Both the position numbers and the translations under genes were made by a program. DNA of 64,000 nucleotides from Octopus vulgaris (Eukaryota). The notes below the pieces were generated by a model, which did no database searches, was not told the DNA's origin, and saw only the letters and a list, made by a program, of their open reading frames with translations. Below, piece by piece: positions 4,495 through 30,466 of this stretch (its first letter is position 1; every line of letters starts with the position of its first letter). Location: contig OX597839.1 of NCBI GenBank assembly GCA_951406725.2, positions 24,614,001 to 24,678,000 on the forward strand, in the 5' to 3' direction.

Positions 4495-4790
4495 ATATAT
4501 ATATATATATATATACACACATCATCATCATCATCGTTTAACGTCTGCTTTCCATGCTGGCATGAGTTGGACAGTTTGACTGGGGACTGGTGAGCCAGAT
4601 GGCTGCACCAGGCTCCTATCTATACATTTATATATATAAAGAACTTTTATAAGTTTATTGCACTTTAATAAGGAAAAAATCCACAACCTTCCATCTCAAT
4701 AAACCACTATTGTCCTTGAAAATTGGTTTTTTTCTATATTCATTACAGATTTTTTTGAAGCTAACTTTCTTCCTACACTTCAATTCTCAG

Positions 4791-26467: not shown

Positions 26468-26830
26468 CATCATCGTTTAGCGTCCGCTTTCCATGCTGGC
26501 ATGGGTTGGACGGTTCAACTGGGGTCTGGGAGGCCAGAAGGCTGCACCAGGCCCAGTCTGATCCGGCAATGTTTCTACGGCTGGATGCCCTTCCTAACGC
26601 CAACCACTCCGTGAGTGTAGTAGGTACTTTTTATGTGCCAGACGAGGCTGGCAAATGGCCACGATTGGATGGTGCTTTTTACATGCCACCGGCACAGAGG
26701 CCTGGCGAGGCTGGCAACGGCCACAATCGGATGGTGCTTTTTGCCTTGCCACCGGCACGAGGCCAGTCGGGGCGGCGCTGGCAATGGCCACATTCGGATG
26801 GTTCTCTTATGTGTCACCGGCACTGGTATC
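26468..26830 (-). mobile_element. Family D RTE-tail element with internal ~60-bp tandem units
   Basis: Tail CATCATCGTTTAGCGTCCG; repeated GGATGGTGCTTTT...TGCCACCGGCAC. Confidence 0.75.
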
Positions 26831-26929
26831 ACAGCTGGAGAGAAAGCCCTGTATTATGTGATCCAGTTCTGTGGATCTGAGTTCTAATCCTGCTGTAGGA
26901 CGTTAGGCATTTTATACAAGGTGGGCATT

Positions 26930-27620
26930 GATAAAACTGAAAATTTGTCTTCTTGCACTGATATTTGCAGTGCCAAACAACATTGTCCAATGACTCAACA
27001 AGTGCAACAGCGCATCCAAGGACTTCAGACTTGCAGCTGATGACACCTTGAATCTCATTGCTGAGATAAGTGTAGCAGTCAACAACAGAGGCCCAGGATT
27101 TTACATCACTGGTTTCTCCCTGTCCTGCTCTATAGTTGTGAAACTTGGACACTGTCCAGGATCTTTAGGTTCCACCCGAAATCCTTTGGTATCATGAAAT
27201 TTCACAAGATTATGGATTACCATTGGTTGGATTTCGTATCCAACAAACAACTCAACTCAAAGACTGGGATGCATCCGGTGAGTCATATGATTCAGGAACC
27301 CCAGCTCAGGTTGTTTGGCCATGTTGCTCAATTTTGAGAGTCAGACCCTGCCCTTCACTAAGGATCCAGTTGGGTTGATGGCTCATTTTGGTCAACCACA
27401 TGCCACATGGTCGCAGTAGATGAAGTGGTATCGTGTACAGATAGGGACTGACTGGGACTGTATTTGATGGGTCGTTATATCTTTGTGAAGAAGACAAAGG
27501 TTTGGGTCTTTAAGTCTCTGATCCTTCCTAGGACATTGTCTGGGCGCTTTTGGGAGCCATCTTGAACCCCTTTTGTACCAGGACGTTTTGTAGGATTATG
27601 GGTTACCATTGGTCAGAATT
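26930..27620. mobile_element. Scrambled, decayed RTE LINE fragments
   Basis: PVLLYSCETWTLS near 27115-27160, QLRLFGHVA near 27300-27330, CRIMGYHWS near 27590-27615. Confidence 0.5.
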
Positions 27621-27790
27621 TATAGCTTGGTGTCAAACAGTTCTTCAGAGACCTAACCCTGAATGGCTCTAAAGCTAAACAATGGCGTTTAAAGAATGTC
27701 AGGTATTTCTAATACCCTAGTCACATTCAGTGACAATTATATATATATATATATATATAAGCGAGAATGAAGCAACAAGAATGGATAGGT

Positions 27791-27881
27791 TTTTAGTACA
27801 ATCGTTTCATACAAGGACAGGTTTTATTAAAAGTTGCAAAAATTACAGCATATAAACGTGTCCCGTACTCATCAGCTAAAA
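27791..27881 (-). ncRNA. Type-I hammerhead ribozyme motif (inverted copy)
   Basis: Reverse complement of 28221-28311. Confidence 0.75.
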
Positions 27882-28220
27882 TACATCTATTTGTGCATCT
27901 ATACAAAGGATTAATTCACCCTCTCTGTAATGCTAATAAGCAGGAATTGAAACCCACCTCGTTGTAATTAACAATGGATAAATTTGCTTTCTGTGAGTAT
28001 GTAATCCCTCATCATATCTCTGGAAATTCATATGTGCACTATGGATTGGGTCACCTTCTCTGTGATGCTATTAAGACTTTTTTAAAATTCTGTGATAAGA
28101 CTGTACATCATCTTTAAAGAACTTTAATGAACTTTTGAAATCTGTTTATGTTACTTAATTATCTACATTACTTCATGAGTATAGCCTCAACCACTAGGAT
28201 GTCTAGAGAACTCACATGTA

Positions 28221-28311
28221 TTTTAGCTGATGAGTACGGGACACGTTTATATGCTGTAATTTTTGCAACTTTTAATAAAACCTGTCCTTGTATGAAACGA
28301 TTGTACTAAAA
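28221..28311 (+). ncRNA. Type-I hammerhead ribozyme motif
   Basis: TTTTAG-CTGATGA-GTACGGGACA...TGTCCTTGTAT-GAAAC-GATT-GTA-CTAAAA; 6-bp stem I; predicted cleavage after GUA at 28305. Confidence 0.8.
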
Positions 28312-28454
28312 ACCTATCCATTCTTGTTGCTTCATTCTCGCTTATAATCACCCCACATTACTGTATTGTTAAATCAGTATAGTTTTTTTTGGTGCATCTA
28401 AGTTAGGTACCATATTCAAGTAAATTCATTTAAATTAACTTGAATCTTTATTGC

Positions 28455-28489
<35 letters not shown>

Positions 28490-28912
28490 AACCAAATCAA
28501 AATAGATGAACATCAATGGAATTTGTATCTTTGTGGTACCAGTGCCGGTGGCACATAAGAGAACCATCCGAACGTGGCTGTAGCCAGTACCACATCGACT
28601 GGCCTCCGTGCTGTGGGCACGTAACAAACACCATCCGATCGTGGCCGTTCGCCAGCCTTGTCTGGCACCTGTGTCTGTGGCACATAAAATACACCATCCG
28701 AGCGTGGCCGTCTGCCAGCCTCGTCTGGCACCTGTGTCGGTGTCACATAAAATCCCCCACTACACTCTCGGAGTGGTTGGCGTTAGGAAAGGCACCCAGC
28801 TGTAGAAACACTGCCAGATCTGACTGGCCTGGTGCAGCCTTCGGGCTCCCCAGACCCCAGTTGAACTGTCCAACCCATGCTAGCATGGAAAGCGGACGTT
28901 AAACGATGATGA

Positions 28913-28915
<3 letters not shown>
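28490..28915 (+). mobile_element. Family D RTE-tail element
   Basis: Internal tandem units and tail GGACGTTAAACGATGATGATG. Confidence 0.8.
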
Positions 28916-28955
<40 letters not shown>

Positions 28956-29545: not shown

Positions 29546-29550
<5 letters not shown>

Positions 29551-29968
29551 TATAAACAAGGGGAAAAGAAAAAAGATTTCTATGCCAATATGCTGAGAAT
29601 AGACTTTAAATCGTCAATCATCACATTACAATATACATTCACCATAATTACACGTTGTGCTGAAATCGAAGAAAGCAAGCTAACAGATTTTTAAAAAAAA
29701 TTCATTATCTCTATATTGAATCAATTTCAGGATTAATTCTGTTAGCTTGCCTTCCTCGATTTCAGCACGACGTGTATTTATGGTGAATGTATATTGTAAT
29801 GTGGTGATTGACGATTTAAAGTCTATTCTCAGCATATTGGCATAGAAATCTTTTATTCTTTTGCCCTTTGTTTATAATTGTTTATAATTTTCACCTTTAA
29901 AGGTATTTTAATATGCTGCCACTTCGATGGAATTTTTTGGGGAAAAAAATTTTATCCTATATTAGAAG

Positions 29969-30000: not shown

Positions 30001-30466
30001 TCGAAATCGAAATCGGAATCGAAATTGAACCAATCCTATGACTGGCACCTGGCAGATGCCAAGACCCCTGGACTGGTGGTAGGTAAAAAGCACTATCCGA
30101 ATCGTGGCCGATGCCAGCGCCGCCTCGACTGGCTTTCGTGCCGGTGGCACGTAAAAAGCACCATCCGAATCGTGGCCGAAGCCAGTGCCGCCTCGACTGG
30201 CTTCTGTGCCGGTGGCACGTAAAATGTACCAATCCGACCGTGGCCGATGCCAGCCTCACCTGACACCAGTGCAGGTGGCACGTAAAAAGCACCCACTACA
30301 CTCACGGAGTGGTTGGCGTTAGGAAGGGCATCCAGCTGTAGAAACATTGCCAGATAAGACTGGAGCCTGGTGCAGCCTCCTGGCTTCCCAGATCCCCGGT
30401 CGAACCATCCAACCCATGCTAGCATGGAGAACGGACGTTAAACGATGATGATGATGATGATGATGA
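30001..30466 (+). mobile_element. Family D RTE-tail element
   Basis: Tandem GGCACGTAAAAAGCACCATCCGAATCGTGGCCG units and (GAT)n tail. Confidence 0.8.

Follow-up and report, generated by a model that had tools for sequence, protein, structure and literature searches.

Introduction

Insertions of EN+ Penelope-like elements (PLEs) show a characteristic layout. As depicted in Fig. 2 of PMC8557442 and for Pen2a of Adineta (PMC3846280), a typical copy is joined head to head to an inverted 5'-truncated copy, with palindromes at the junction and a tail of 30–40 bp, often at one end. Full-length copies have a partial-tandem 5' pseudo-LTR (pLTR), and the open reading frame (ORF) of the Adineta elements contains Asn-rich insertions (PMC3846280). 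How the inverted ends are formed has been called an open question (PMC8557442, PMC11167929). Self-priming was argued from the junction palindromes of Adineta Penelope elements (PMC3846280), and the tail has been ascribed to endonuclease resolution (PMC8557442). Biochemical data come from PAc, the Poseidon element of Anolis carolinensis (Frangieh et al. 2024, PMC11167929). In vitro, both target strands were cleaved and extended, the reverse transcriptase (RT) used two internal start points, one at either end of the tail, and ribozyme cleavage was unnecessary. That study reported no difference between strands in the start site and no homology between primer and template.

Elements of the Hydra clade (Craig et al. 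2021, PMC8557442) have a single ORF that joins an RT to a C-terminal GIY-YIG domain. They carry the motifs RWK and DKT, a CxCX5C linker, and CxxC and CxH motifs around E and N, and they have neither a CX2-5CxxC pattern nor CCHH cysteines between GIY and YIG. Their targets are (TA)n repeats, a type I hammerhead ribozyme lies near the 3' end, and Penelope-13_HM has an inverted 5'-truncated copy. The Hydra consensus sequences listed there are 1.1–3.0 kb long, and Hydra-1_Obim of Octopus bimaculoides has 2,507 bp. Loop 2 of the hammerhead spans 3–10 nt in the Hydra elements listed in the supplement to that paper, and 8 nt in Hydra-1_Obim.

The hammerheads of PLEs (Cervera and de la Pena 2014, PMC4209133) are of type I, with a short palindromic stem III and an enlarged stem II of 6–8 bp, and activity is expected from the dimer. 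A short palindrome in stem III identifies PLE hammerheads of the dimer type, whose activity is low, and in Schistosoma, pairs of hammerheads on opposite strands lie 100–700 bp apart (PMC4209133). Dimeric PLE hammerheads were also described by Lunse et al. (cited in the review PMC6765202). The non-LTR retrozymes of metazoans (Cervera and de la Pena 2020, PMC7229834) are non-coding and low in GC, contain a type I hammerhead, and consist of short head-to-tail repeats of a fixed unit. Here, we describe an inverted repeat with two hammerhead motifs from Octopus vulgaris, the element from which it derives, and a rule that pairs the two ends of its insertions.

Layout of the cassette

The window, i.e., the whole stretch of 64,000 nucleotides analysed here, contains a cassette for which the open reading frame listing gives no ORF. 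Its two inverted arms (27756–27886 and 28216–28346) are 131 nt each, are 100% complementary, and are separated by 329 nt. On the left, the sequence shows a (TA)n target microsatellite (27737–27760), the last TATA of which overlaps the end of the arm. Arm A (27756–27886, minus strand) is an inverted 5'-truncated copy of the 3' end of the element, ending at what we call site A. It is followed by a 4-nt filler, CTAT, at the head-to-head junction (27887–27890), possibly a short templated insertion, as identical letters follow CAT a few bases inside arm B. Arm B (27891–28455, plus strand) is a direct 5'-truncated copy made up of 3' UTR, ribozyme, and tail, the final 565 bp of a 4.7-kb element.

Two fixed 3' ends are represented in the cassette. 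Site A, the upstream one, lies at 28340–28346 (plus strand) and adjoins TTATAAT of the element. The one-sided tail (28347–28455, plus strand) extends 109 bp past the arm, and site B, the downstream end, lies at 28452–28461 (plus strand) and adjoins AATATATT of the element, so that the two sites are about 115 nt apart. In full-length copies, the tail sequence continues into the 5' UTR and ORF. A short T run and a second stretch of the (TA)n target microsatellite, again read from the letters, form the right flank (28456–28488). An earlier note on this DNA had described perfect inverted arms of about 131 bp, a tail, and (TA)n flanks, all of which are present. What it took for a spacer of about 330 bp belongs to the 3' UTR of the element and does not form a part of its own; 27891–28455 is one continuous piece.

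Other repeats surround the cassette. Copies of a SINE-like repeat with internal tandem units of 62–68 bp lie on both sides of it, at 26467–26833, 28532–28916, and 30075–30455. A decayed fragment with a partial direct repeat is found directly to its left (about 27065–27700), and the translation of this fragment (PVLLYSCETW...LRLFGHV) appears similar to the last part of an RTE-type LINE reverse transcriptase. Another head-to-head repeat lies within (TA)n at 29548–29965, with arms at 29551–29690 and 29735–29874 (89%) and a one-sided tail of about 90 nt. It represents a different abundant family, with 90–96% identity in the best 40 of 1,432 candidates. A pattern scan found no canonical hammerhead in this repeat, which is likely a stub of another Penelope-like family.

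The parent element and its protein

The cassette is almost certainly a single insertion, truncated at its 5' end and accompanied by an inverted copy and a tail on one side, of a Penelope-like retrotransposon that is young, high in copy number, and equipped with Hydra-clade motifs. It is collinear with a coding element, and its inverted copy and tail have the published layout. Positions 27891–28455 differ from a copy with an intact ORF (L038) by 3 mismatches in 565 bp (99.5% identity), and the best 40 of 1,693 candidate copies found in a search of the 2.8-Gb genome are 99–100% identical over the same interval. Other copies extend upstream through a 3' UTR of 1.55 kb into a frame of 981 residues. 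Measured from one ribozyme to the next, the unit has 4,713 bp, and a partial second unit sits in front in full-length copies (the partial-tandem pLTR). A stop-to-stop frame of 981 residues is present in L038 and L043, and seven matches at ≥97% identity have open frames of 970–984 aa. A 30-mer from the ribozyme occurs exactly 791 times genome-wide, and a control 30-mer does not occur at all. The earlier note had proposed a Penelope-like origin, an inverted pseudo-LTR, and a young age, and had called for a search for copies and an autonomous partner; all three readings hold, and copies with an intact frame (L038 and L043) are present in the genome. Among what is new here is the parent family, 4.7 kb long with Hydra motifs and a tail of 115 nt; the insertion layout had already been published.

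The product of the 981-residue frame (P0001) is a telomerase-related RT in a single ORF. Its AlphaFold model has a pLDDT of 78 and a pTM of 0.77, telomerase RTs account for nine of the ten top matches in a Foldseek comparison with the PDB, and the frame contains YRDD. A GIY-YIG pattern (VIY...YYLG, R, H, E, N) lies at residues 860–955, with Y863, Y876, G878, R886, and H890 invariant among 97 homologues. The nearest atlas clusters of the C-terminal part are labelled GIY-YIG, with a Pfam share of 11% that makes this a lead only. RWK is found at residue 64 and DKT, replacing DKG, at 151, and these occur in 87 and 108 of 120 listed homologues, respectively. The CxCX5C linker is at 842, CxxC at 939, and CxH at 969, and neither P0001 nor any of the 120 listed homologues has the Neptune-type CX2-5CxxC or the CCHH pattern. 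Pfam assigned no family to P0001, and PDB sequence searches gave no match naming it. Two Asn-rich stretches of low model confidence (residues 517–596 and 697–836) keep the frame.

The parent is almost certainly an EN+ PLE and, judged by motifs, appears to belong to the Hydra clade, every tested motif of which it carries. It shares with that clade the single ORF with RT and C-terminal GIY-YIG domain, the motif set described above, the type I hammerhead near the 3' end, and the inverted 5'-truncated copy seen in Penelope-13_HM (PMC8557442), and the 3' ends run into (TA)n at the C1 and C2 loci examined. Naiad and Neptune identities were rejected on domain order and motifs. However, the unit of 4,713 bp exceeds the length of less than 3 kb by which the clade is described, and the 3' UTR of about 1.55 kb, the tail of about 115 nt, and the two Asn-rich stretches in the ORF also set this element apart.

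Several more Hydra-type families are present in the genome (L104–L123, L019, L030, L035, L038, and L102), with 42–78% identity over the N-terminal 150 aa. Some have frames of 842–1,091 aa, and most of those examined have hammerheads with a long stem II. L122 and L123 have a hammerhead with a CCGAAGA core variant, and a pattern scan of the fetched loci found no hammerhead pattern in L119–L121 (the 47–49% family). L043 (G000:C2:37617000-37628000) is a head-to-head pair of about 11 kb whose two copies are nearly complete; each has an upstream ribozyme to itself, and the pair ends at A on one side and at B on the other.

The hammerhead motif

As the earlier note had it, each arm holds a complete hammerhead motif with a 6-bp stem I, a stem II region of about 60 nt, and a GUA triplet. 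The motif in arm B lies at 28221–28311 (plus strand), with a predicted cut after 28305; its mirror in arm A, placed by pattern scan and mirror arithmetic, lies at 27791–27881 (minus strand), with a predicted cut at 27797. In the right arm, stem I pairs 28221–28226 with 28306–28311 and is followed by the core CUGAUGA (28227–28233), the stem II region of 60 nt with its apical hairpin (28234–28293), GAAA (28294–28297), and stem III, ACGAUUGU (28297–28304), which is self-complementary and precedes the cut predicted at the GUA triplet. A CUGANGA / GAAA / NUH core closed by three stems is the arrangement of a type I hammerhead. Stem II consists of about 10 bp plus a 40-nt extension that bears the apical hairpin. 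The first pair of this stem, G-U in the young family, is G-C in some of the older families, and the region measures 49–61 nt across diverged subfamilies and other families in a pattern scan of the fetched loci. Elsewhere in the window, further hammerhead-like patterns with a 5-bp stem I occur at 62727 and 44730, both on the minus strand; the one at 62727 has a stem II region of 44 nt and a palindromic stem III.

We call the motif a hammerhead because of comparative pairing evidence, and not from single-sequence folding or Rfam. Among 16 distinct sequences from the nearer families, 87.5% of the 416 cells are paired, a value reached by 0 of 500 shuffles (slid controls gave 34–46%), and two-sided changes are seen at 9 of 26 pairs, in all four helices (12 of 500 shuffles); the set consists of related sequences, and these shuffle counts are not probabilities. 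By this comparison, the hammerhead fold is conserved in the family. Stem III was surveyed with its six central bases left free and at least 4 pairs required in stem I, which gave 13 sequence clusters that are related to one another and hence not independent. In 12 of the 13 clusters, its majority form is self-complementary throughout, and in 11 it is a perfect palindrome, of four kinds. The short palindromic stem III ACGAUUGU is what would be expected of the dimer-type hammerhead that the earlier note had suggested.

Other approaches did not recover the motif. Rfam returned no hammerhead among its 7 matches at E ≤ 10 for 27700–28460, and for the whole window, there were only simple-repeat-driven matches among the 150 listed of 231. 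In single-sequence folding, the motif was no better than shuffles (z −0.78) and the hammerhead was not obtained, and in local context, stem I of the active fold has a probability of about 0.01. RNAalifold, when unaided, missed the hammerhead fold and preferred a hairpin that masks GAAA and the cut site.

The long stem II appears to be a hammerhead variant within the Hydra clade, one missed here by stock Rfam models. Its region of 60 nt contrasts with the loop 2 of 3–10 nt listed for Hydra elements, and its roughly 10 bp and 40-nt extension contrast with the 6–8 bp of other PLE hammerheads (PMC4209133). The nearest listed long-loop case is PLE-X1 of Selaginella, with a loop 2 of about 30–35 nt that is flagged as non-canonical (PMC8557442 supplement). 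Because the ribozyme differs, the description of Hydra-1_Obim suggests that the element is a different family. In the literature searched, chiefly open-access and without Repbase, we did not find such a stem II, and the supplements to PMC8557442 and PMC4209133 may contain cases. Otherwise, the motif shares with the PLE hammerheads of Cervera and de la Pena (PMC4209133) the type I form, the short palindromic stem III, the enlarged stem II, the expected activity as a dimer, and an occurrence in pairs on opposite strands like that reported from Schistosoma.

Two fixed 3' ends

The sample comprised all 36 loci on contig C1 with an exact match to the ribozyme 30-mer and four loci from C2 that were picked as pairs. 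The 3' ends fall at site A (28340–28346) or at site B (28444–28463, mostly 28455–56) and then run into (TA)n. Two arms are present at 23 of the 36 C1 loci, and in all 23, one ends at A and the other, in opposite orientation, at B (0.5^23, about 1e-7). Among the remaining 13 loci, six are A-only and seven B-only; these were followed for about 4.5–5 kb upstream, and more distant arms could be missed. All four C2 pairs also combine A with B. Once noted, the rule was applied to the far ends of eight long copies in which an inverted arm was already known: seven were as predicted, the exception lying 20 nt short of A, in (TA)n. Three further long insertions all pair A with B, and at loci chosen for a B end, the second arm is A in 22 of 22 (one repeats a C1 locus). 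Contigs from other studies also contain (TA)n ends, at site A in two studies and at site B in four, one run of which may be the assembly source. PMC8557442 and PMC3846280 state only that a tail is often at one end, whereas the pairing of A with B is counted here. We did not find the rule stated in the literature searched, again chiefly open-access and without Repbase.

The arms themselves were compared in 28 pairs (23 from C1, four from C2, and the window). The A arm is longer in 8 and the B arm in 12, and the 5' ends lie within 15 nt of each other in 8, against a permutation mean of 1.0 and a maximum of 6 in 20,000. Arm lengths range from about 100 bp to more than 2 kb between insertions, and at several insertions a short B arm accompanies an A-ended arm that is nearly full length, at more than 4 kb. 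Excluding gaps and a pyrimidine tract in the 3' UTR, the two arms of an insertion show 31 differences in 12,506 sites (0.25%), as against 1.44% between insertions, and 27 of the 28 pairs differ at three sites or fewer. A single insertion, L157, contributes 12 of the 31 differences; several of these match alleles present at other loci, a hint of two templates.

The 5' ends and junctions show some regularities of their own. Coincident 5' ends are often on small palindromes (L143, L157, L124). Three of 20 long arms, as well as L133, have a 5' end at reference position 4562–4564, which may point to a start site near 28050 of the window, a spot that is also a near-palindrome. At 19 of 29 site-A junctions (C1 loci L124–L159), a G is present that through-running copies lack; it may be a first nucleotide added without a template or come from the target. 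All 3' ends lie beyond the predicted cut site, and none of the 20 ORF-bearing arms begins at the cut; therefore, the template was uncleaved or religated. The upstream ribozyme is run through by 11 of these 20 arms, by 104–1,250 nt. A circular template, as proposed in PMC4209133, is possible.

Discussion

The octopus element shares with typical EN+ PLE insertions (PMC8557442, PMC3846280) the head-to-head inverted 5'-truncated copy, the one-end tail, the junction palindromes, the partial-tandem 5' pLTR of full-length copies, and the Asn-rich ORF insertions known from Adineta, with a tail that is about three times longer. To account for the paired ends, we think it probable that both nicked target strands are primed, at two internal sites of the RNA. 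The GIY-YIG domain would nick both strands of the (TA)n repeat; priming would take place at site A, about 36 nt beyond the ribozyme cut site, from one nicked strand and at site B, about 150 nt beyond the cut, from the other, in both cases next to a short TA-like patch in the RNA. After passing the ribozyme in the 5' direction, both cDNAs would end prematurely, and microhomology or filler would link the free ends into a head-to-head repeat with a tail on one side. We see the chances as evenly balanced that both primers read one RNA molecule. The ribozyme would have its role in the parent transcript, probably as a dimer via the palindromic stem III and possibly in making circles, and would be a passenger in the stub. 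A fuller version, which we put forward a little more tentatively, is that in PLEs a protein dimer primes each nicked (TA)n strand at its own fixed site on one uncleaved, perhaps circular, RNA, leaving every two-armed insertion with exactly one short and one tailed end, and that the long-armed hammerhead of this lineage (stem II of 49–61 nt with apical hairpin, conserved across diverged families) may be a protein-binding or switching element.

Double priming would extend, by analogy, the in vitro results for PAc to this family. The two have in common two internal RT starts that bound the tail, the cutting and extension of both strands, AT-rich targets, and an uncleaved RNA template (PMC11167929). 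PAc belongs to a different clade, however, and its ribozyme and both start sites are inside the ORF, whereas here they are upstream of it. In the octopus insertions, each of the two sites is used once, and both border TA-like patches, whereas for PAc neither a start-site difference between the strands nor primer–template homology was observed. Some points weigh against double priming. Its steps are read solely from finished insertions, with no intermediate seen. The shared alleles are also compatible with two RNAs of one source locus, with DNA copying between arms, or with gene conversion, and the palindromes at coincident 5' ends may mark points of fold-back or annealing and not run-off from one RNA end. 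The extra G at 19 of 29 site-A junctions is not explained by the model.

Two other routes to the same layout have to be weighed against double priming. If a cDNA primed at site B snapped back and copied itself as DNA, with an endonuclease nick or a stop setting site A, this would explain why A is paired with B and why the arms share alleles, including private ones. Such self-priming, akin to the model put forward for the Adineta elements, also fits the palindromes and hairpin-like fillers at several centres, and it fits L038, where the A arm starts no more than 4 nt from the 5' end of the long arm. However, on this route the A arm should in no case exceed the B arm in length, which fails in 8 of 28 pairs, and it is at odds with the several A-ended arms of more than 4 kb beside short B arms and with A-only copies (six) being as common as B-only ones (seven). 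Fold-back would therefore need later one-sided deletions. The PAc RT, moreover, started at both ends of the tail in vitro (PMC11167929), and we regard fold-back as unlikely. We give somewhat less weight again to an origin from two RNA molecules, held together by the stem III palindromes of their hammerheads and a protein dimer and contributing one arm each. The self-complementary stem III in the majority form of 12 of 13 clusters, with four perfect palindromes, speaks for it, as do the dimer predicted for PAc (PMC11167929) and the different subfamily alleles carried by the arms of L157. Equivalent RNAs, however, give no reason for a strict A-with-B pairing or for coincident 5' ends, and L157 stands against 27 of 28 pairs with at most three differences.

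The earlier note had taken the cassette for a non-autonomous, retrozyme-like family in which antisense fold-back could compete with self-cleavage. Like metazoan retrozymes (PMC7229834), the cassette is non-coding, low in GC, and equipped with a type I hammerhead, and retrozymes have been proposed to derive from PLE pLTRs (bioRxiv 10.64898/2026.07.22.740005). The burial of the ribozyme in a read-through RNA, which the note foresaw, is upheld computationally: the arm duplex is predicted at −225 kcal/mol against about −10.5 for the hammerhead fold, the ribozyme stems have a pair probability of 0 in the whole cassette, and such a duplex would silence the ribozyme. This burial follows from any inverted insertion, and fold-back as a regulatory design is unsupported because arm lengths vary between insertions. 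The family reading itself was rejected, and we hold it to be very improbable. The cassette is collinear at 99.5% with an autonomous element, of which it is the 3' end, and the features tested for a retrozyme were not found. There is no fixed non-autonomous unit, the 5' break-offs are scattered, and no second copy with the same arm length or junction appears among the best 40 of 1,693. No short head-to-tail units were seen at the 36 C1 loci or other loci examined, where same-strand ribozymes are 4.7 kb apart; in place of the short repeats of a fixed unit known from retrozymes (PMC7229834), there is a head-to-head stub of a coding element. An assembly artefact, to which the 100% identity of the arms and the lack of a contig of another run, among those listed, spanning the central junction might point, is more improbable still. 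The same architecture recurs with private junctions at dozens of loci, a 4-nt filler lies at the junction, and (TA)n ends at both sites are present in contigs of other studies.

In itself, the cassette is an ordinary retrotransposon footprint; what makes it useful is the access it gives to a very young family of the Hydra type. The strict pairing of ends, the symmetry by which either arm may be the longer, and the shared alleles are countable predictions on which double priming and fold-back can be compared. With about 800 near-identical ends and several intact frames, the family is a natural data set for the double-priming model.
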